Positions 28,134 to 38,240 of a stretch of DNA of 64,000 bases are shown here, piece by piece (position 1 is the stretch's first letter; every line of letters begins with the position of its first letter). The notes beneath the pieces are model-generated. The model saw nothing but the letters and a program-made list of their open reading frames with translations. It was not told the DNA's origin and did no database searches. A program made the translations under genes and the position numbers. The stretch spans positions 5,041 to 69,040 of the forward strand of contig CBDVBK010000007.1 of NCBI GenBank assembly GCA_965372215.1, in the 5' to 3' direction. The DNA comes from an uncultured bacterium. Lineage in GTDB: Bacteria; Fermentibacterota; Fermentibacteria; Fermentibacterales; JCC-6.

Positions 28134-30404
28134 TTACTCCTGATTCAGGTAGAGTGCTCTGTATATAATGTATGCGTGATAAACATTTTGCGCATAGGTC
28201 TTTGTTTCATTGTATGTAATCAGTGAAAAGAACTCATCTGTTTCCATATCAATCGCTCCCCAGTGAATCGCATTATGAGGGCCTGCATTGTATGCAGCAG
28301 CTGTTTTTACCGGATTGCCGCCGAACTCATGCAGGACGCCGGCTATGTAGCAGATGCCGTATTCAATAGAAACCGCCGGATCGTAAAGCCTGTCGGGAGA
28401 GTATTGATTCCAGCCCTGCTCCAGTGCTACATATTCCGATGTGCTTGGTATCATCTGGATAAGCCCTCTGGCTCCCGCAGTGGAATAGCAATCCGGCTGG
28501 AACATGCTCTCATTCCTGATGATAGCCCATGCAAACAGTGAGTCCATTCCGTATTTTTCTCCGGCCGGCACAACGAGTTCCGGCCAGGCCATCTGATAAC
28601 GGAGCATCCAGAGTTCTCGAGGGCGATCATTATCATCTTCCGCAAGATCCCACATCAGATAACCGGAAAGAGGCCTTCTCTCCCATACACCGTTCTGCAG
28701 GTAAAAAGGCGCTAGATAATCCGGCCCGCCGACAATATCTTCCCCTTTCCTGAATTCTCCATCTGCAAAATGCCTCAGACCGGCTTCCTGTAGAAATAAT
28801 CCGCGGAAAGCCTCCTCTGGCGGGTGTGCGGGAGGATGTCCGTGTCTGGTCATCCAGTCAATAAGAGATTCTTCGGTATAATCAGGTTTCCAGGCAGGTT
28901 TTCCAAGGAGTTCCCTTGCGAAGTTCGCCGGAAGGCTGGCAGGCGCGGTGTCAATCAGTTGCTCAAGAATCACATTTCCGTCCGGATTGCCTTCTGCCAG
29001 AAGGAGTTTTCCAAGCCAGTACTTCGCTGAGGAGAGATAGACGCTTCCCGTCCACCTTGAAATGAAATTGCTGAATTCCTCCATAGAATCCGATATTCTG
29101 CCTGTCTTCATCAGACAGAAGCACAGGTAAAAATGGGCATCATCAGCCGTAACGTTAAAAGGGTATTTCTCGAGAGTCATTCGGAACCAGGGAATAGCCT
29201 GCTGCCACTGTCTATTCTCAACTAACATGTTCCCCATATACCACGGATAATTCCCGATCCTGTGATGATCCGGGAATTCCGATGCATACTGTTCAAGAAC
29301 CTCCAGCCCCCTCTGCCAGTTACCGGAACGGCCGAGATTGCGTCCCAGATAAATCATCGCATCGGGTGTATCACTACCTGTCGGCCATTTTTCAGAATAC
29401 TGCTGCAGCATTTCCACTGCTGTTTCGTAGAACCCAAGCCTGTCTCTGGTTCTTGCCGCGAGATACCACAGATGAGGATCGGGATCAGGGGAATTAACAG
29501 CGATATCGTAAAGTTCGTTCCACAGCCCGCCTGAATAAAATGGATCAGCAACTGCGGCGGCCAGGCTTCTGTCATTCAGTATGAATTCACGAAGCACATC
29601 GTATCCATGAGCATGAACAGGAGCCGCAGGCCAGAGTTCAAAGGCTCTCTGAAATACCTCTCTGTACCCGGAAATTCCAGCATGAAGCATCCAGGCACCC
29701 TTGTAATGACAGAGTAATGACAGCAGTTCATCATCCAGGGAAGTCTCAGCAGACTGAAAAACAGAATCAGCGTCTGACAATCTTCCTGTTTCCAGCAAAG
29801 CGCGATAGAAGATTATCGTTCTGCTGCGGAGGGCAGTTTCCGGAAGCTCCTCAGGAATATTCCACATTATCATCATAGCAAGATCGGCTTCTCCGCCCGC
29901 GATAAGAGAATCAGCAAGAGCAAGATACAGGTATTCAGGCATCACGCAGTCATGTATGGAAATGTACGAGATCAATTCTCTTCCCACTTCATGTCCACCG
30001 AGCTGTAGAGCTTTGTAAGGAGCAAGAGAATCCGTCTGTTCAAGAAGGAGCTGCGCACAGATTACACTGGAAGCGTCACTGACATCTGCCGCCTTCCAGA
30101 TCAGATCATGTCTGAGTGAATCCTCCGGAGTTCTCAGGAGTGCAGCCCTGATAAAACACCCGCGAGCTTCATCATTCAATCCAATGACTGCGAGAGAATC
30201 CCCGCAAGTTTCTGCAAGACAACTTCTCTGCTCAAAAGACAGGTCATCCGGTTGATTCCCATCCGGCTGAAGCGTGGTGCAGCCGATCAGTGAAATGCTT
30301 GTAATAAGAAGAAGAACCCTCAAGGTTCTATCGGTACTTCGCAAGTTCCTGTTCCAGCTCCGGATTTCCCGGAGCGATCTTCTCAGCCTGTTCGAGCAGA
30401 GCAA
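28134..30404 (-). CDS. Lipoprotein with a superhelical TPR-like domain and a C-terminal soluble lytic transglycosylase (Slt70-like) domain. The true start probably lies downstream of 30404.
   Basis: Lipobox LIGC after a hydrophobic stretch. SLT catalytic motif IRNESMFQPD, plus GLIQMIP and AYNAGP in the C-terminus. Confidence 0.75.
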   Translation of the reverse strand: MLCSNRLRRSLREIRSWNRNLRSTDRTLRVLLLITSISLIGCTTLQPDGNQPDDLSFEQRSCLAETCGDSLAVIGLNDEARGCFIRAALLRTPEDSLRHDLIWKAADVSDASSVICAQLLLEQTDSLAPYKALQLGGHEVGRELISYISIHDCVMPEYLYLALADSLIAGGEADLAMMIMWNIPEELPETALRSRTIIFYRALLETGRLSDADSVFQSAETSLDDELLSLLCHYKGAWMLHAGISGYREVFQRAFELWPAAPVHAHGYDVLREFILNDRSLAAAVADPFYSGGLWNELYDIAVNSPDPDPHLWYLAARTRDRLGFYETAVEMLQQYSEKWPTGSDTPDAMIYLGRNLGRSGNWQRGLEVLEQYASEFPDHHRIGNYPWYMGNMLVENRQWQQAIPWFRMTLEKYPFNVTADDAHFYLCFCLMKTGRISDSMEEFSNFISRWTGSVYLSSAKYWLGKLLLAEGNPDGNVILEQLIDTAPASLPANFARELLGKPAWKPDYTEESLIDWMTRHGHPPAHPPEEAFRGLFLQEAGLRHFADGEFRKGEDIVGGPDYLAPFYLQNGVWERRPLSGYLMWDLAEDDNDRPRELWMLRYQMAWPELVVPAGEKYGMDSLFAWAIIRNESMFQPDCYSTAGARGLIQMIPSTSEYVALEQGWNQYSPDRLYDPAVSIEYGICYIAGVLHEFGGNPVKTAAAYNAGPHNAIHWGAIDMETDEFFSLITYNETKTYAQNVYHAYIIYRALYLNQE

Positions 30405-31248
30405 CAGCTTTTGAATGGTTCTTTTCCGCCGCGTAAGCTCTGCTCATGGCGATCATGACTCCGATTGAAGGTTCTGATTCTCTCTCAAAGAATTTTTGCA
30501 GAAATTCGATAGTCTCATTCGCTCGTCCTGTGTGAACAAGAATTGTTCCAAGACCTGAAATGGCAGGTTCAAGCTCCGGATCAGCTTTTAGAGCTTTTCT
30601 GAAATCTTCCTCCGCTTCATCCAGTTTTCCCTGAGAAGCCTTTATATGAGCCCTGTTTGCCAGAAGCCCGGGATTGTCAGGACTGAGTTCGATAGCATCC
30701 TGAAGGCTTGATAAGGCCTGTTCGTATTCCGCGTTATTGAAATGCATTATCGCCGAGCGGTTCAAATCTCTCACGCGGTTATCCATTACTTCAACGGAGT
30801 GAAGAGAAAGCAGTTTGTTCATTTCCTCGAGCTGTTCCTTCTGATATTGAGAGTTCTCCTTGATTGTTTTATCAATAGAACTGACTTTTTCAGCAAGTGC
30901 GTCTCCACCCTTTGTATCCTGCTTGCTGATCACATCTTTCACGGTTTTCTCAATTGATTTCGCGGATTCAGAAAGCAGTTTGGTTACTTTTCCAAGTTCC
31001 TTGACAAAAACCTTTTTATCTACAGGATCAGAGATACCTCCAGCCAGTAATTCATTTGTCTTTACAAGCTGCTCGGCAATACCATCAAATTTCTCCTGAA
31101 GCATAGCCAGAAGGTTTTTCTCCATCTTTTCAAGGAGAGCATTGTTATTCTCAACGGATTCATTGAGTTTGTAGATAAGTTTTCCGATTCCGGTCAGAAG
31201 CTCCTCCATCGAAAGTCCCTTTTTGTCAGATTCTGGTGCTTTAGCCAT
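30328..31248 (-). CDS. Coiled-coil / TPR repeat protein
   Basis: N-terminal heptad-rich region, and C-terminal TPR-like repeats (AEYEQALSSLQDAIELSPDNP ...). Confidence 0.55.
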   Translation of the reverse strand: MAKAPESDKKGLSMEELLTGIGKLIYKLNESVENNNALLEKMEKNLLAMLQEKFDGIAEQLVKTNELLAGGISDPVDKKVFVKELGKVTKLLSESAKSIEKTVKDVISKQDTKGGDALAEKVSSIDKTIKENSQYQKEQLEEMNKLLSLHSVEVMDNRVRDLNRSAIMHFNNAEYEQALSSLQDAIELSPDNPGLLANRAHIKASQGKLDEAEEDFRKALKADPELEPAISGLGTILVHTGRANETIEFLQKFFERESEPSIGVMIAMSRAYAAEKNHSKAVALLEQAEKIAPGNPELEQELAKYR

Positions 31249-34200
31249 TGTTCACCTTCTTCATTTTCGGATTGATCCGGAGTCCGGACAGTAAATCAAG
31301 TCCACTGCTGTTATTCAGAACACCTGTGTTTTCCATAATTGATGTAAGAGCCGGGTGTTTATCCGCCAGAAATCTGCGAAGAGCAGATATTTCCATCAGC
31401 GCACCGGTTTGCCCTATGGCCCATATAAGCCGTTTAAGTGGCATTTCTCCGCCCGTTTTTCTGTATTCGTTAATCCATATTGAAATAGCCTGGTTTCGGA
31501 AACCCAGATTCCATTGTGCAAGTGCTTTTATATCCGGTGCTTCAGGATATTCTCCGTCAAGGTCGTGAATCTCCTTCAATGCTCCCTCTGCATCTCCTGA
31601 TATCATCAGTATGGAAGCCCTCTCGATACCTGATACGGATGATTTATTTCTGGCATCCTGCAGTTCACTGCTTAATATGGAGAGCAGCTCCTCCGTACTT
31701 TCCTCTCTTGCGATTGACGATGCTTCAGCCAGCATCCCGGCGGACAGCAGAATTCGCACGAGTTTGACCGTTTCCTGAGGAGACAGGGAATCCTCGGAAC
31801 CGGGGAGAGGCAGAATCTTCATGCATGCTTCAGCCAGTTTAAGCCTTAATGCTGTGTCATCAGGCGGAAACAGAATTCTGTCATCTGCAAGCTTGAATAA
31901 TCTTCTCACGCCCTGACCGGATTTCAGAACGGCTTCAGCTACCGCTCTGGCCTCTTCCGAATCAATATCATCATATCCATCCGGGAAGAGCTTTTCAAGA
32001 GCCTCGATTACTATTCTGTCAACCTTTACATATCTCCAAATCGAGGTTCTCTTCGCGTTTCCGGCAATCACCTCGCGAAGAAGCTTCTCAGAAGCGATAG
32101 AGTCCCATGGATCTCCACCCTCCAGAGAAATACCGCAGAGAATTTCTTCAACCTGTTTCTTAAATCCAAGGGAAGACGCATATCTGACCAGGCCCGAAAG
32201 AGCTTCAGCATTATCCACCGGAGACCAGTTCCTGGCTGCGATATCAAGCAGTTCTTCGGTCAATGGGATGTCGATATCCGTTTGGCCCCTGATGATCTCA
32301 TTGAATGTATCCGAATCGCCGGCTGCAATTGAACAGATTATTTTTGAGACGGGTCCAAGCTGTGCAAATTCAGTTAGAAGACCTTCAGAAGAAAGCTCCG
32401 GCTTAAGAAGGACAGCTTCAGTGATAAGATCGTCAATATCCGCGTCAATCCCGTTTCTATTTGCTGTCCGGGCAGCATACAGATATGCTTCTCCTGATAA
32501 CGTCATTATTGCCATGGATACAGCCATTTCAACCAGTTCAGCGCTCGAATCAGCATCAAGATCCAGCATCAGAGCAGAGTACTCTTGAAATCGCTGGAAA
32601 TCCCCTGTATGGACTGATGCTCTGGTCAGTGAATCAATTATCGTAAATTCACCGGGATGGCGCTCATGCATTTTCTCAAGCTGATCTATTATGCTCCTCT
32701 CTGATAGTATCGGAGAAATTATCCGGGCCAGATCATCAAATCTCTTCTCGGTCTCATACGATATTGCAATTAGTTCCCGAATTTTAATATTGAATGCTGG
32801 AGCACGCTGCAACAGATACTCAAGCAGTTCTCTGGCCATCTTGCTTGTCTTGATTGCCGTCACCGACTGTTCAAGAAATTCCAGAGACTCTCCGGTTTTG
32901 TCCTGAACCGCTGCTCGACAGGCATGGGCAATATCCCGCATCAATGTATCTTTAATGCTGCCGTCTATATAGGATGATCCAGCAAGTATAATCTTACCCT
33001 GAGCAAGAAGGTATCTGAGCCTGAACTCAGCTTCCTCAACCGGATTACCCCAGTCAAGCTCCGTAACGAGAGAAAGCTTCCAGTCTTCCGTACCTCCAAG
33101 GCACTCCAGAATTGAAGCTACTGTTGCAGTAGCCTTCATTGAAGAGATCTTCGAAAGAATGCTCCCGAGATCCAGTTCGCATAGAAGATCAGCCGACAAT
33201 CCGGATATTTTTCCAGCAATACCGCTCTGATATTCAATGTCATCAAGAGCCAGAAGGAGATATTCATTTGAGGCTTCAGCATTCTTTTCCCGGAGAGCAA
33301 TAAGAGCAGCTACATATGCCTGCCAGGAATCAATCGGTTTGAAGTTTGCCTCCTCAAGTTCTGAAACGGATCCAATTTCAATACTATCACTTGCCAGAAG
33401 CTTCCGCCCATCCATTGAAGGGTTCCTGCCGGTAAGGAATATCGAGAACCAGTCGGATGCGGCATCATTCAGTCTATCCGATCTGAACCGGAAGAGAGCC
33501 CTCGCTTCTCTGAGTTCCGGATATCTTATAACCTGATCCTCAAGTGAATCGAGAACCTCAGCTGATTCTGAGCAGAAATTTTTATCAAGTCTCCGTGACA
33601 GATGGTCGAGAGTAGCAGCTGCTTTACCTTTTTTACCCGTTTCAAAAAGAACTGCAGCAAGAAACGATAGAACTGAAGCGCTGTTTTTATCATGTACAAG
33701 AAGTTTCTGAACTTGTTCAAATACCCAGGACGCATCAGAATTTAAAATCGGGTAAAGCGATATCACTGCATTCTTCACATAACCATTGTCGACAAGATAT
33801 GACGCAAGCTTCATAGCAATAGTGCCGGTATTGTCTCCCGTCATTGATATCAGGCTTCTACAAACCTCTATCAGTCTGTCACTGTCAGCGTTTCCAGCTT
33901 CGAAAGCTCTCTCAATTGCTTCTGCGGCTTCTGCTGTTTTTCCATTCTCCAGGTCCATTCGCGCAGCAAGCAGGAGAGGCGCAGCTCCACTCTCCGGATG
34001 CGAAACCAGTTCTTCGATGGCTGTTTCGAGTTTACTCCTGTCAAGAGTATCACTGTATACATTCTCAAGAATTCTGGATGCGGCTTCAGTTTTGCCGGCT
34101 GCCGTAAACATCTCCGCAAGCAATGCTGATGATCTGCCGGATCTGTCAGACGGTATCATCCATTTCTCTATCACATCAGCAGCATCAACAGCATCATCCT

Positions 34201-34912
34201 GTGATAAATCGATTCCGGTAAGCTGGTTGGCATATTGCATCGCCATATCCATCTTGCCTGAAATCGCTGAAATACCCATCAGGGCTATCAATTGACCGCT
34301 TTCGACCTGTTTAACCTGATTCCCTATCCAGGAAGCAAGCAATGATATATCTCTGTGCGGAAACTCCACTTCTCTGCAGATTTTCCAGAGGAAATCAATT
34401 GCGTCGTTTTTCTGTTCATTACGGTACAGACAAAGCGCCCATTCTACAAGGGATGATTGATCGGCTTCAGGATGAACAGTTCCGTCAAATCTGGTAGAAT
34501 TCCTGGTCCGATCTTCTATCAGCGCAAAAAGATTGGATACAGCTATTTCATCTGCTTTCCCAAGTACATTCAGAGCACTCTTGAAATCATGCCTGTCAAT
34601 AAAGCTCTTCCATGTTGTTCTCAAGAGTTCAGTTGACCTTGAAAACTCATCAAGCCGTCCTATGAACAGATCCTGCACTTCACCGGTTATCTGTCTGTGT
34701 CGATGAATAACTTCTCCACCGATATCAGCTGCAAGATTCGGATGGCCTATATCAAGAAGGAGCTCGAGCAGTTCAAGGGCAACTCCGCTTTCTTCCAGAA
34801 GTCTGTCTCTCTCCTCTTTGACCGTGGAGGAAACTCGATTTACGCTTCCCTCACTGGCGAACTTACTGATTCTCTTAAGAATTCTTCTGGGACCTGATTC
34901 AAATAATGCCAT
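31241..34912 (-). CDS. Large (1223 aa) all-alpha TPR-like repeat protein, function unknown
   Basis: Long uninterrupted ORF with helical-repeat composition and no recognisable catalytic motif. 8-nt overlap with the downstream gene. Confidence 0.45.
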   Translation of the reverse strand: MALFESGPRRILKRISKFASEGSVNRVSSTVKEERDRLLEESGVALELLELLLDIGHPNLAADIGGEVIHRHRQITGEVQDLFIGRLDEFSRSTELLRTTWKSFIDRHDFKSALNVLGKADEIAVSNLFALIEDRTRNSTRFDGTVHPEADQSSLVEWALCLYRNEQKNDAIDFLWKICREVEFPHRDISLLASWIGNQVKQVESGQLIALMGISAISGKMDMAMQYANQLTGIDLSQDDAVDAADVIEKWMIPSDRSGRSSALLAEMFTAAGKTEAASRILENVYSDTLDRSKLETAIEELVSHPESGAAPLLLAARMDLENGKTAEAAEAIERAFEAGNADSDRLIEVCRSLISMTGDNTGTIAMKLASYLVDNGYVKNAVISLYPILNSDASWVFEQVQKLLVHDKNSASVLSFLAAVLFETGKKGKAAATLDHLSRRLDKNFCSESAEVLDSLEDQVIRYPELREARALFRFRSDRLNDAASDWFSIFLTGRNPSMDGRKLLASDSIEIGSVSELEEANFKPIDSWQAYVAALIALREKNAEASNEYLLLALDDIEYQSGIAGKISGLSADLLCELDLGSILSKISSMKATATVASILECLGGTEDWKLSLVTELDWGNPVEEAEFRLRYLLAQGKIILAGSSYIDGSIKDTLMRDIAHACRAAVQDKTGESLEFLEQSVTAIKTSKMARELLEYLLQRAPAFNIKIRELIAISYETEKRFDDLARIISPILSERSIIDQLEKMHERHPGEFTIIDSLTRASVHTGDFQRFQEYSALMLDLDADSSAELVEMAVSMAIMTLSGEAYLYAARTANRNGIDADIDDLITEAVLLKPELSSEGLLTEFAQLGPVSKIICSIAAGDSDTFNEIIRGQTDIDIPLTEELLDIAARNWSPVDNAEALSGLVRYASSLGFKKQVEEILCGISLEGGDPWDSIASEKLLREVIAGNAKRTSIWRYVKVDRIVIEALEKLFPDGYDDIDSEEARAVAEAVLKSGQGVRRLFKLADDRILFPPDDTALRLKLAEACMKILPLPGSEDSLSPQETVKLVRILLSAGMLAEASSIAREESTEELLSILSSELQDARNKSSVSGIERASILMISGDAEGALKEIHDLDGEYPEAPDIKALAQWNLGFRNQAISIWINEYRKTGGEMPLKRLIWAIGQTGALMEISALRRFLADKHPALTSIMENTGVLNNSSGLDLLSGLRINPKMKKVNNG

Positions 34913-34921
34913 TTCCCCATC

Positions 34922-36478
34922 CTACTCAGGTATAATTAGGAGAACATCACCTAATGACAGGATACTGCTCTCAAGAGAGTTAAGGTACATGATCTGTTCA
35001 ATAGATACGTTATATCGGATAGCAAGGTCCCATAAAGTATCTCCCTCAACAATCACATGTTCAATTCTCACTCCACTCGATACTATATCTATTTCATTCT
35101 CTTCGGGAAATACGTTATTTGAAAGCGGGTATTCCTCCGCTTCCGTGCTATCGCAACGGCGAAGAAGGAGAACATCTCCAGGGTAGATAATATTTTCAGA
35201 TGACATGTTATTCCATTCAGCAACCTCTTGAGAGCTGACTCCGACACCTGCGGCTATCTCGCTCATGGTATCCCCCATTCTAACAGTATACCTTATGAAC
35301 TGAGGATTATCCATATACCCTGCATTAACAGGTCTGCGCTGGCTCTCCGGCAGCCCGATAAAAACTCCGGGCCTCAGGGAACCGGCGGAATTCAAACCTC
35401 TGAGAACCTCAGGAGAGACTCCTGTTGACCATGCGATTCCGTTCCAGGTATCGCCATCCTTAACAAGGTATCTTTCAGGATCAATTGTCCAGGCTGCGGT
35501 GAAAACATCATTAACCCTCTCTGCGGGTACAATGATTTCCCACGCCTGTCCATCATCAGGAGTCCTCTCCAACAGATAGGATCTGTTCAAATCCATCAGA
35601 GAATCAATTTCTATTCCCGTTTCAGGACCGAGTAGTCTCAAATCAAACCCTGAGGGAACCCACACCACTGCCAGAACGCCTGATTCCAGTTCCACATCGA
35701 TATACGCTTCTACGGCAGATGCAAATCTTGGAACAAAGACATCGGTTTCGCCGGGAAGCTCAATTTCTCCGAAAGTCGAACCTCCCTGCTGCAAACCTGA
35801 CAGTACTCTTCCTGGACCGCAGTTATATGCCGCCAGAGCCAGAGACCAGTCATCAAACATCCCGTGAAGATGAAGCAGGTATTTCGCTGCTGCTCTTGTT
35901 GAAGCTACCCATGAGTACCTTTCATCCACTGAATCATCTATCCGCAACCCCATCTCCCGCGCGGTTTCAGGCATTAACTGCCACGGACCTGCAGCTCCCA
36001 TTCGAGAGTAACATCCAACATTGAAATCACTTTCTACCCATACAAGTGCAGCTATCTCCACCGGTATACCCTGGGTTCTGAGGATTCTCTCGATAAGATC
36101 CTTTATATCACCTCTGCCGGGAAAACCTTCAGTTCTGTACTGGATATCACTGAAGGATGCGAGAGAAGCGGGAATATCAGTTGTAGGAGCTTCAGTGCGG
36201 ATTATCTCACCCCCCTGGAGTACCGGTAAAATCATTGAATTATGCGGTGCCGGGGCAACAGTATTTAATTCACGATGGACGTCCAGAGTCGTGATGCGTG
36301 TCCCGGAGCAGGATATTAATGAAAGGGTTGACCAGAGAAAACCTATCAACAAGTATCGTCTTAACAGTCTGGAGGTTGAACAATGATATCCGTCGGCGTT
36401 GTTGGCGCAACAGGTCTTGTCGGTGCGAAAATGATCAGTGTACTTCAGGAGCGCTCCTTTCCTGTTGACCAATTCCAT
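34922..36478 (-). CDS. Membrane-bound lytic murein transglycosylase D-like protein with three C-terminal LysM domains. The true start probably lies downstream of 36478.
   Basis: SLT motif LVWVESDFN, plus AYNCGPGRV. Three LysM repeats (YLVKDGDTWNGIA, YTVRMGDTMSEIA, HVIVEGDTLWDLA). Signal peptide LISC. Confidence 0.8.
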   Translation of the reverse strand: MELVNRKGALLKYTDHFRTDKTCCANNADGYHCSTSRLLRRYLLIGFLWSTLSLISCSGTRITTLDVHRELNTVAPAPHNSMILPVLQGGEIIRTEAPTTDIPASLASFSDIQYRTEGFPGRGDIKDLIERILRTQGIPVEIAALVWVESDFNVGCYSRMGAAGPWQLMPETAREMGLRIDDSVDERYSWVASTRAAAKYLLHLHGMFDDWSLALAAYNCGPGRVLSGLQQGGSTFGEIELPGETDVFVPRFASAVEAYIDVELESGVLAVVWVPSGFDLRLLGPETGIEIDSLMDLNRSYLLERTPDDGQAWEIIVPAERVNDVFTAAWTIDPERYLVKDGDTWNGIAWSTGVSPEVLRGLNSAGSLRPGVFIGLPESQRRPVNAGYMDNPQFIRYTVRMGDTMSEIAAGVGVSSQEVAEWNNMSSENIIYPGDVLLLRRCDSTEAEEYPLSNNVFPEENEIDIVSSGVRIEHVIVEGDTLWDLAIRYNVSIEQIMYLNSLESSILSLGDVLLIIPE

Positions 36479-37357
36479 GCATTCGCCTCAGGTGAATCCA
36501 GAGGAAAGACGGTCCGATTCAGAGATGAAAACTACCCCGTTGAAATAATAACACCTGAAACATTATGCAAGGGAATCATACTGTTTGGTGCCACCTCTTC
36601 GGAAGTGGCCAAAAAATGGATACCTCAGTGCATTGAATTCGGAGCGTCAATTATAGATAATTCTTCCGCGTTCAGAATGAATTCTGAAGTGCTCCTTGCC
36701 GTACCAGAAGTAAACGGCCATCTAATAACCGGCACCGAGAACCTTATCGCCAACCCGAACTGCTCCACAATACAGCTCGTTGTTGCTCTCAATCCACTTG
36801 CAGCAATAAGACCTGTCCTGTGGGTTTCCGTCGCAACGTATCAGGCGGTATCCGGTGCTGGATCGCCACTCCTCAATGAACTTTTAAGACAACAGAACGG
36901 TATGGAAATCAAACCGGGAACTGCCCATCTCCATGAAAACATCATCACCGGCATAGGTCTACCCGATGCAAACGGCTACTGTGATGAGGAGTTGAAACTC
37001 ATGCATGAAACCTGCAAAATCATGAACATGGATTTTCCTGTTTTCGCCTCCACTGCAAGGGTGCCTGTCAGAACTGGCCACACGGAAGCGGTAGTGGTTA
37101 AATTCAGCAATCCCATGATCGCTGAAGATGCGGTATCAATTCTGATGAATGCTCCAGGTATTGAAGTTTCAAAGAATAGTTGCTCACCTGTGGATGTGGA
37201 AAATACCGACGCTGTAGTTGTGGATAGAATACGCAATTATCCTGATGATCCAACTATTCTTCAATTCTGGGTCCTGGCAGACAATCTCAGAAAAGGCGCA
37301 GCATTGAACGCTGTTCAGATAGCGGAAGTGTTTCTGGCTAACAGGGTCAGGTCGTGA
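36383..37357 (+). CDS. asd: Aspartate-semialdehyde dehydrogenase
   Basis: GATGLVG NAD(P)-binding motif. Active-site NPNCSTI cysteine. Full-length Asd. Confidence 0.9.
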   Translation: MISVGVVGATGLVGAKMISVLQERSFPVDQFHAFASGESRGKTVRFRDENYPVEIITPETLCKGIILFGATSSEVAKKWIPQCIEFGASIIDNSSAFRMNSEVLLAVPEVNGHLITGTENLIANPNCSTIQLVVALNPLAAIRPVLWVSVATYQAVSGAGSPLLNELLRQQNGMEIKPGTAHLHENIITGIGLPDANGYCDEELKLMHETCKIMNMDFPVFASTARVPVRTGHTEAVVVKFSNPMIAEDAVSILMNAPGIEVSKNSCSPVDVENTDAVVVDRIRNYPDDPTILQFWVLADNLRKGAALNAVQIAEVFLANRVRS

Positions 37358-37481: not shown

Positions 37482-38240
37482 CTAGATATCGACATCCATA
37501 TCATCGAAATCAAACTCGTCTTCAAGATCCTGACTGAGATCCTCGAGTTCAGCGTTGCATTCCTCGCAGATCACTAGGTGCGGAGGATTATTATGTCCGC
37601 AAGAAGGACACTTGTTCTCCTCGGATTCTGCTACCGCATTCTCGACATCAATCTCGAGTTCCTCGATATCGTCGCCATCGATCTCTTCAATAAGTTCGTC
37701 ATCCTCTATGTCAACGATTTCCTCTTCATTTGAAGCTTTCGGTTCGACAACAAATCCACCTCCGGGAACACCAGCTGATGTAGCGCTATCAACATCGCTC
37801 AGGACACCGTTAAGATCACTCAATTCTCTGCGAAGTTTATCCAGTTTTCCTGAAGTTTTATCACGCTCAGTTTCCGACTGGATAAGTTCATTCTTGAACT
37901 CATCATTACCTTGATCGAACTCACCAAGTTTTGCTCTTATCTGCAGTTCATCGACCTGGTCTGATTGCTGTGTAAAGGTAGCCTCATGCTCGCTGATCTG
38001 ACCGGTAAGCTCCTTCGCTTTTACCTCCAGCGAACCACGCTTATCGCTTATTTTTTCGAGAACCGACTGAAGCTGACTGCTGTAGTCATCACGAATTTTT
38101 CCGTACACCCTGTCGTTGGTGTCCGTCTTCATGTTTTCCAGATTATGCAACCGACCGACAAGTTCCTCTCTGCGATCAAGTAGATCCAGAATCTTCTTTT
38201 CAAGAACTTCTGCCATGTTCCCCCCTATGATTTGAGCCAA
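37482..38240 (-). CDS. Hypothetical coiled-coil protein with a C-terminal zinc ribbon and an extremely acidic tail
   Basis: N-terminal heptad-repeat region. Ribbon motif CPSCG...CEEC. Many D/E residues. Confidence 0.4.
   Translation of the reverse strand: MAQIIGGNMAEVLEKKILDLLDRREELVGRLHNLENMKTDTNDRVYGKIRDDYSSQLQSVLEKISDKRGSLEVKAKELTGQISEHEATFTQQSDQVDELQIRAKLGEFDQGNDEFKNELIQSETERDKTSGKLDKLRRELSDLNGVLSDVDSATSAGVPGGGFVVEPKASNEEEIVDIEDDELIEEIDGDDIEELEIDVENAVAESEENKCPSCGHNNPPHLVICEECNAELEDLSQDLEDEFDFDDMDVDI

Follow-up and report, generated by a model that had tools for sequence, protein, structure and literature searches.

Inspection of the open reading frames (ORFs) of a 64,000-nucleotide (nt) stretch of DNA from an uncultured bacterium of the phylum Fermentibacterota (Candidatus Aegiribacteria; contig CBDVBK010000007.1 of assembly GCA_965372215.1, positions 5,041 to 69,040; hereafter the window) indicated that four co-directional minus-strand ORFs span positions 28134-36478. 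Read along the minus strand, they encode an MltD-type lytic transglycosylase (34922-36478; maximal ORF of 518 amino acids (aa), with the real start probably near 36352), an all-helical solenoid protein of 1223 aa that is like tetratricopeptide repeat (TPR) proteins and belongs to an orphan family (31241-34912), a 306-aa coiled-coil/TPR protein recognised by its Pfam TPR repeats and by orthologue alignments (30328-31248), and an Slt70-type lytic transglycosylase lipoprotein (28134-30323; 729 aa from a TTG at 30323, the maximal ORF of 756 aa reaching 30404). The 1223-aa product of 31241-34912 is named BIG in this report and the 306-aa product is called the TPR partner. The minus-strand block had been delimited in a first-pass annotation made from the letters of the window and its ORF list, and all four ORFs are indeed present. 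We report that these four genes form a tightly packed unit throughout the phylum, and that the two inner products probably work inside the cell.

Gene order and junctions across Fermentibacterota

Searches with the window proteins (tblastn) in 57 related genomes revealed the gene order holA, p252, asd (opposite strand), MltD-type, BIG, TPR partner and Slt-type in every locus long enough, and the order of the last four genes was kept in 49 of the 49 complete loci. Because the same order is found in all of these loci, the four-gene layout is not due to chance, and the conservation of the block in other genomes, on which the first-pass annotation had let its proposal depend, is borne out.

The junction gaps were measured to the nearest start codon in the 49 loci carrying all four genes. 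The gap between the MltD-type gene and BIG was 3 to 15 nt in 46 of the 49 loci, that between BIG and the TPR partner -11 to +25 nt in 43, and that between the TPR partner and the Slt-type gene -20 to +26 nt in 47. The corresponding values in the window are 9 nt, -8 nt and 4 nt, and the tight or overlapping junctions first noticed there are thus accompanied by few-base gaps in the related loci. The 8-nt overlap in the window, ATGGCTAA (31241-31248, minus strand), was read from the sequence and contains the stop of BIG and the start of the TPR partner; it suggests translational coupling of the inner genes. An overlap of the two genes (gaps of -11 to -1 nt) occurs in 22 of the 49 complete loci, among them those of the window and its close relatives.

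At the 5' side of the block, asd (aspartate-semialdehyde dehydrogenase; 36383-37357, plus strand) is the divergent neighbour in every related locus reaching that far. The 3' boundary is sharp, and the content past the Slt-type gene differs by clade: a radical-SAM / FeeM / B12-radical-SAM / FIST block in the clade of the window (L009-L012), a Fer4/hydrogenase cluster in the other Aegiribacteria, and aminotransferase or genes related to acyl carrier protein in more distant members. Insertions were seen between p252 and asd, and none was seen inside the four-gene block.

The two lytic transglycosylases

The products of both outer genes carry the Pfam SLT domain (PF01464; 79.9 and 79.3 bits, cut-off 21.3), which places both in the family. 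In the MltD-type product, as had been proposed, an SLT domain (1.4e-22) is joined by LysM in three stretches (1.7e-29). The catalytic domain lies at 35789-36073 (minus strand), with the motifs VESDF (36023-36037), GPWQLM (35972-35989) and AYNCGPG (35810-35830), and the three LysM peptidoglycan-binding repeats lie within 34931-35470 of the same strand, at about 35348-35470, 35159-35290 and 34931-35059. The Slt-type product carries Pfam TPR repeats at approximately residues 310-470 (about 28995-29477, minus strand) and a C-terminal SLT domain (2.2e-22; 28239-28565, minus strand) with the motifs RNESMF, GLIQMIP and AYNAGPH. A lipobox, LIGC, was read from its translation at 30279-30290 (minus strand), in line with the earlier description of an Slt70-like lipoprotein. 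In the MltD-type product a hydrophobic stretch precedes LSLISC (residues 52-57 of the maximal ORF), and the lipobox LISC (residues 54-57) corresponds to 36308-36319 on the minus strand; an equivalent lipobox was detected in 36 of 59 orthologues by a crude regular-expression test. Judged from these features, the outer genes encode family-1 lytic transglycosylases with intact catalytic motifs, both predicted to be exported as lipoproteins, and the presence of lipoprotein signal peptides places both enzymes in the periplasm.

The comparison with named models was less close. The MltD-type product scored 136.3 bits against the NCBIfam MltD model (PRK10783, NF008050), below its cut-off of 508, and the Slt-type product scored 80.7 bits against the NCBIfam Slt model (PRK11619, NF008631; cut-off 536), over the catalytic domain only. 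Since these equivalog cut-offs were missed widely, the names MltD-type and Slt70-type are used here and the proteins are not called orthologues. The Slt-type product also scored 96.7 bits, below the cut-off of 234, against the NCBIfam model of BB0259 (NF047373), a flagellar-assembly transglycosylase of Borrelia. Against structures in the PDB, the MltD-type product matched the MltD-like entry 8rhe (2.1e-24) over residues 92-339, and the Slt-type product matched the Slt entries 6fbt, 5ohu and 1qsa (1e-15 to 1e-18) over the catalytic domain only. A flagellar reading of the locus through BB0259/FlcA was rejected, as the NCBIfam scores were far below the cut-offs and no flagellar proteins are encoded in Candidatus Fermentibacter genomes (PMC5030696).

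While the ORFs stood as first given, two of the 5' ends proved to be over-extended. The 306-aa and 756-aa ORFs overlap by 77 nt only because the maximal ORF was taken; the TTG at 30323, 4 nt past the TAG stop of the 306-aa gene, gives the lipoprotein signal MRVLLLITSISLIGC, and the Slt-type orthologues open with equivalent signals, such as MKRLLPIAALLLGC in L001 and VRRLIFTVLSLAAVAGC in L002. The TTG at 30323 is therefore the most likely start of the Slt-type gene, as judged from the sequences. An inverted repeat, AGAACCTTGAGGGTTCT (30313-30329, minus strand), spans the TAG stop of the TPR partner and this probable TTG start, with a T-rich run after it; it may influence translational coupling or may have arisen by chance. 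Terminator-like sequences in the region were about as frequent as in shuffled sequence. The maximal MltD-type ORF overlaps asd on the opposite strand by 96 nt (its first 32 codons), and the called MltD-type orthologues are 437-472 aa long, compared with 518 aa for the maximal ORF. Its start is probably near 36352 (TTG) but remains uncertain; no canonical start codon in this region would give the signal peptide a charged n-region. Hardly any intergenic DNA separates the MltD-type gene from the divergent asd (36308-36478 versus 36383-37357), and since this pairing is kept in every related locus reaching asd, the promoters of the two genes must overlap.

The inner pair and the surrounding genes

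Neither a signal peptide nor a convincing membrane segment was found by simple hydrophobicity measures in BIG or in the TPR partner, in the window or in the orthologues examined. The maximum 19-residue Kyte-Doolittle values in the window were 1.33 for BIG and 0.64 for the TPR partner, and the N-termini are conserved and hydrophilic phylum-wide, reading MA[LI]F[ED]S.P.. and then a basic helix in BIG, and ..EQLL..G.. in the TPR partner. A check for signal peptides, which the first-pass annotation had advised, thus separates the inner proteins, where there is none, from both transglycosylases, where they are present. No membrane-spanning link is encoded by any of the four genes. From these sequence features, BIG and the TPR partner probably work inside the cell and do not hold the enzymes at the wall.

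Two candidate signals were rejected. Tat export through the arginine pair (RR) in the N-terminus of the window BIG was dismissed because the orthologues have RK or QK at this place and no hydrophobic stretch follows. A stretch at approximately residue 430, which reaches Kyte-Doolittle values up to 2.23 in Sabulitectum-type orthologues, was not accepted as a membrane segment; in the alignment it falls on a helix of the repeat array in the model of the window BIG, and charged or polar residues occupy it in other clades.

The BIG N-terminus harbors a conserved cationic amphipathic helix at residues 8-22, RRILKRISKFASEG (34847-34891, minus strand), identified by its hydrophobic moment. The moment of 0.83 is the highest of the 1210 windows in the protein; across 18 family members the helix ranks first in 11 and within the top 18 in all, with a net charge of +2 to +5. 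The helix is a candidate membrane- or partner-binding element.

The only Pfam match of BIG was a borderline TPR_19 (25.0 bits, cut-off 25). A word-indexed search with BIG returned 42 homologues, 43-98% identical and 1219-1232 aa long except for two partial ones, which where named belong to Candidatus Aegiribacteria or Fermentibacteraceae; repeating this search with the broadened alignment A4 gave the same 42 proteins and no distant relatives. Comparison of the BIG profile with all 1.84 billion representative proteins yielded 23 matches, namely 22 family members or fragments and the outlier P0063. Nearly all of the matches are from Fermentibacterota, and more divergent members of full length (1162-1234 aa) are among them. 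When one genome per GTDB species was scanned with a single conserved peptide motif, a scan that is blind to relatives without it, 57 BIG loci were found, labelled, where named, Fermentibacteria, Aegiribacteria, Sabulitectum or Hyd24-12. In the PDB the profile found only a designed TPR at an E-value of 0.033. The earlier statement that the 1223-aa protein has no recognisable homolog by motif is upheld in that the protein belongs to no recognisable family.

Members of the family share a length of ~1160-1235 aa, the N-terminal MA[LI]F[ED]S.P followed by the basic amphipathic helix, the motif LL[DE]I[GA][HY]P[DN]L, and a gene placed between those of the MltD-type enzyme and the TPR partner; the window protein has all of these hallmarks. 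Conservation is somewhat higher over the first ~650 residues. Between clades BIG is 25-31% identical while the enzymes are 43-50% identical, showing that BIG diverges much faster.

An AlphaFold2 model of BIG (residues 1-1200, built with 23 family sequences) is an all-helical solenoid of ~75 short helices with a mean pLDDT of 83.6, in agreement with the all-helical repeat protein first proposed, while the pTM of 0.40 leaves the overall shape uncertain. In this model the tandem helix-turn-helix repeats wind into a superhelix, as in TPR and TPR-like solenoids. The best fold matches were the long TPR scaffolds Cdc16, Ski3/TTC37, IFT139 and Ctr9, with TM-scores of only 0.1-0.2; the fold search recommended earlier thus gave a TPR-like solenoid, but only generic matches. 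BIG is an uncharacterised orphan family with a generic fold, essentially restricted to Fermentibacterota.

In the TPR partner, the Pfam TPR repeats at approximately residues 160-304 agree with the TPR protein of the first-pass annotation. Orthologue alignments revealed a conserved N-terminal helix (31153-31209, minus strand) and, together with Pfam, a 4-repeat TPR domain (30337-30771, minus strand). The orthologues range from 306 to 641 aa, the window copy being the shortest, and the difference lies in a central region that is almost absent in the window and has ~330 extra residues in L006 (641 aa). This region, probably a coiled-coil spacer of variable length, matches in the longer orthologues such coiled-coil-type families as Apolipoprotein, DUF948 and Baculo_PEP_C. 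In the orthologue from L041 (L041:6704-8017) the central region opens with tandem repeats of ~27 aa, DFTPVLEKLDLLKDAVTALGAAQNTAV. The single-sequence AlphaFold2 model of the TPR partner shows three long helices and the TPR domain (pLDDT ~80-90), with low confidence outside the TPR domain.

The weakest match of the BIG profile, P0063 (1259 aa), was used as a query in turn and gave one relative, P0064 (1257 aa); these are the only two proteins of this type in a collection of 5.8 billion. Over residues 3 to ~440, both align in register with the broadened BIG profile (hhalign probability 95.2%, E-value 2.7e-8). Downstream of the BIG-like gene, and overlapping it, both genomes have a TPR gene of 672-693 aa, whose C-terminal TPR domain aligns with that of the TPR partner (96.9%); a 67-71-aa ORF, a HAMP histidine kinase and a sigma-54 response regulator come next. 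No transglycosylase gene was found near the distant pair (L007:8001-14062, L066:7656-13656). If the homology is real, BIG and its partner would be a self-contained module which in Fermentibacterota has come to lie between two transglycosylase genes. The L007/L066 lineage is AT-rich, and L007 carries ftsZ and ftsA ~6 kb off on the other strand.

The surroundings of the block in the window are core chromosome, with dnaJ, mutS2, dnaG, rpoD, a SurA-like gene, holA and asd. The gene at 37482-38240 (minus strand) adjoins holA in every related locus reaching that far; its 252-aa product is a coiled-coil protein, very acidic and devoid of membrane segments, with a zinc ribbon at its C-terminus (DZR, 20 bits, below the cut-off). 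The minus-strand block 21235-28013, which lies immediately past the Slt-type gene, carries genes for a hybrid histidine kinase, a FIST protein, a B12-binding radical-SAM protein, a FeeM-like N-acyl amino acid synthase and a second radical-SAM protein. The B12-binding protein scored 318 bits with the TIGR04072 'lipid biosynthesis' model, just under the cut-off of 360, and the block may encode a lipid or N-acyl amino acid pathway. Of this block, the genes from radical-SAM through FIST follow the Slt-type gene in L009-L012 alone among the loci compared, and these four loci end before the kinase, and the block looks like a clade-specific insertion. Further along, in the run of minus-strand ORFs at 13732-20869, the 355-aa ORF at 19802-20869 is a match to Fer4, the first gene of the cluster in other Aegiribacteria, and the lengths of the other ORFs fit a Fer4 / FAD-binding / NADH-dehydrogenase-like / NiFe-hydrogenase cluster. 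This cluster stands directly past the Slt-type gene in other Aegiribacteria and in the window is displaced by the 21235-28013 insertion. Scans of the window for tRNA genes and Rfam families gave no matches, and an anti-phage defence reading was rejected as there was no meaningful PADLOC match.

Explanations considered and likeness to known systems

We tentatively favour, at somewhat short of an even chance, the explanation that the block is a conserved Fermentibacterota operon whose inner pair is a cytoplasmic, possibly membrane-peripheral complex, co-expressed with the two enzymes and serving an envelope process. BIG and the TPR partner would form this complex, which might sit on the inner membrane face through the cationic amphipathic N-terminal helix of BIG and would be a scaffold for an envelope-related process, be it growth, division or a pilus-type machine. 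It would be co-expressed with both peptidoglycan-cutting enzymes without binding them directly, and any coupling through the inner membrane would depend on a partner from another locus. SgmX, of 1060 aa and without a signal peptide or transmembrane domain, sets a precedent as a large TPR scaffold of the cytoplasm that serves an envelope machine (PMC7519303).

Several points weigh against this explanation. The cytoplasmic location rests on the absence of signals as judged by simple hydrophobicity measures, and membrane binding by the N-terminal helix of BIG is a conjecture, as in the model the helix may simply cap the solenoid. The scan for promoters and terminators gave counts at the shuffled expectation (13 versus 12.8 and 10 versus 7.4) and is uninformative on transcription units. 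The synteny reaches the housekeeping genes holA, p252 and asd, so that the conservation may in part reflect inheritance and slow rearrangement. Finally, since no transglycosylase gene adjoins the L007/L066 pair, the pair of BIG and its partner does not require them.

The last two points lead to the explanation that survives next best, in which there is no functional link and the inner pair is an independent cytoplasmic module lying between housekeeping transglycosylase genes in a slowly rearranging neighbourhood. This is unlikely, yet it has to be taken seriously: holA, p252 and asd are syntenic in every locus that extends to them, with SurA-like and ABC transporter genes beyond them on the upstream side in the loci whose gene calls were read, the window carries housekeeping genes (dnaJ, mutS2, dnaG, rpoD), and the distant pair and the faster divergence of BIG relative to the enzymes agree with it as well. 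On the contrary, the few-base junctions are kept at all three boundaries despite the divergence of BIG to 25% identity, and rearrangements occur up to the 3' edge of the block and between p252 and asd but never inside it. If the inner pair is unrelated to the enzymes, the locus would consist of two ordinary housekeeping transglycosylases and a lineage-specific hypothetical protein.

A bolder form of the cytoplasmic explanation, which we consider improbable, is that BIG and its partner are a phylum-specific cytoskeleton-like or polar/septal organiser, anchored to the membrane by the BIG helix, which through a membrane partner would dictate where the co-transcribed transglycosylases cut the wall. 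If true, it would be an undescribed inside-out system positioning peptidoglycan cleavage. In the literature searched, no description was found of TPR proteins that lack export signals and are encoded between two lipoprotein transglycosylase genes.

The first-pass annotation had proposed that giant TPR proteins scaffold both transglycosylases in one peptidoglycan-remodelling complex; BIG and the TPR partner would then be periplasmic and physically hold the two enzymes in the manner of NlpI or LbcA. NlpI and LbcA are TPR lipoproteins that scaffold peptidoglycan hydrolases, and such scaffolds are already known; the tight packing of the four genes throughout the phylum and the TPR repeats of the Slt-type enzyme itself would also suit the proposal. 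Nevertheless, a periplasmic scaffold is unlikely because no Sec, Tat or lipoprotein signal occurs in the orthologues of BIG and the TPR partner examined, while both enzymes have lipoprotein signals. The RR of the window BIG is not conserved and lacks a following hydrophobic stretch, and a BIG-like and TPR pair exists without transglycosylases. The proposal is thus not sustained in this form, and we give it little credence.

Least probable of all is that the inner pair, by analogy with SgmX, serves one trans-envelope machine, most likely type IV pili, with the wall opened by the transglycosylases for its assembly: genes for type IV pili but none for flagella occur in Candidatus Fermentibacter genomes (PMC5030696), pili are activated by SgmX, a TPR protein of 1060 aa in the cytoplasm (PMC7519303), and machine-dedicated transglycosylases such as BB0259 are known (PMC8517470), but the conserved neighbourhood contains no pilus gene, the profile search found no sequence relation of BIG outside its family, and the NCBIfam BB0259 and FlcA matches are far below the cut-offs.

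Fermentibacterota are uncultured and widespread in anoxic sediments, seeps and digesters, and a core phylum-defining operon, in which wall-cutting enzymes are paired with an orphan putative scaffold of ~1200 residues, gives a handle on how they build or divide their envelope.

Compared with known systems, the MltD-type enzyme is like MltD of Escherichia coli and Pseudomonas aeruginosa in its lipoprotein signal, its SLT domain with the ES motif and its C-terminal LysM repeats, while it has three of these repeats rather than two, as are found in E. coli MltD. The Slt-type enzyme is like Slt70/Slt (family 1A) in that a long N-region of helical repeats precedes a C-terminal SLT domain bearing the ES, GLxQ and AYNAG motifs, but it is a lipoprotein while Slt70 is soluble, and the sequence alignment extends over the catalytic domain only. 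The inner pair resembles NlpI and LbcA as TPR proteins linked with cell-wall hydrolases, while those are exported lipoproteins and BIG and the TPR partner have no export signal, which sets them apart from periplasmic scaffolds. SgmX of Myxococcus xanthus, and also Bd2492, are like BIG in exceeding 1000 aa, in their TPR repeats and in the absence of a signal peptide or transmembrane segments; SgmX differs in not being encoded between transglycosylase genes, and no SgmX relative was among the 23 matches of the BIG profile search of 1.84 billion representatives. The likeness of the BIG model to the eukaryotic scaffolds Ski3/TTC37, IFT139/TTC21B, Ctr9 and Cdc16, at the low TM-scores given above and 7-13% identity, is generic repeat similarity and no sign of common descent or function. 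Very long pure TPR solenoids are best known from eukaryotic complexes, and BIG would be a bacterial case of such a solenoid.

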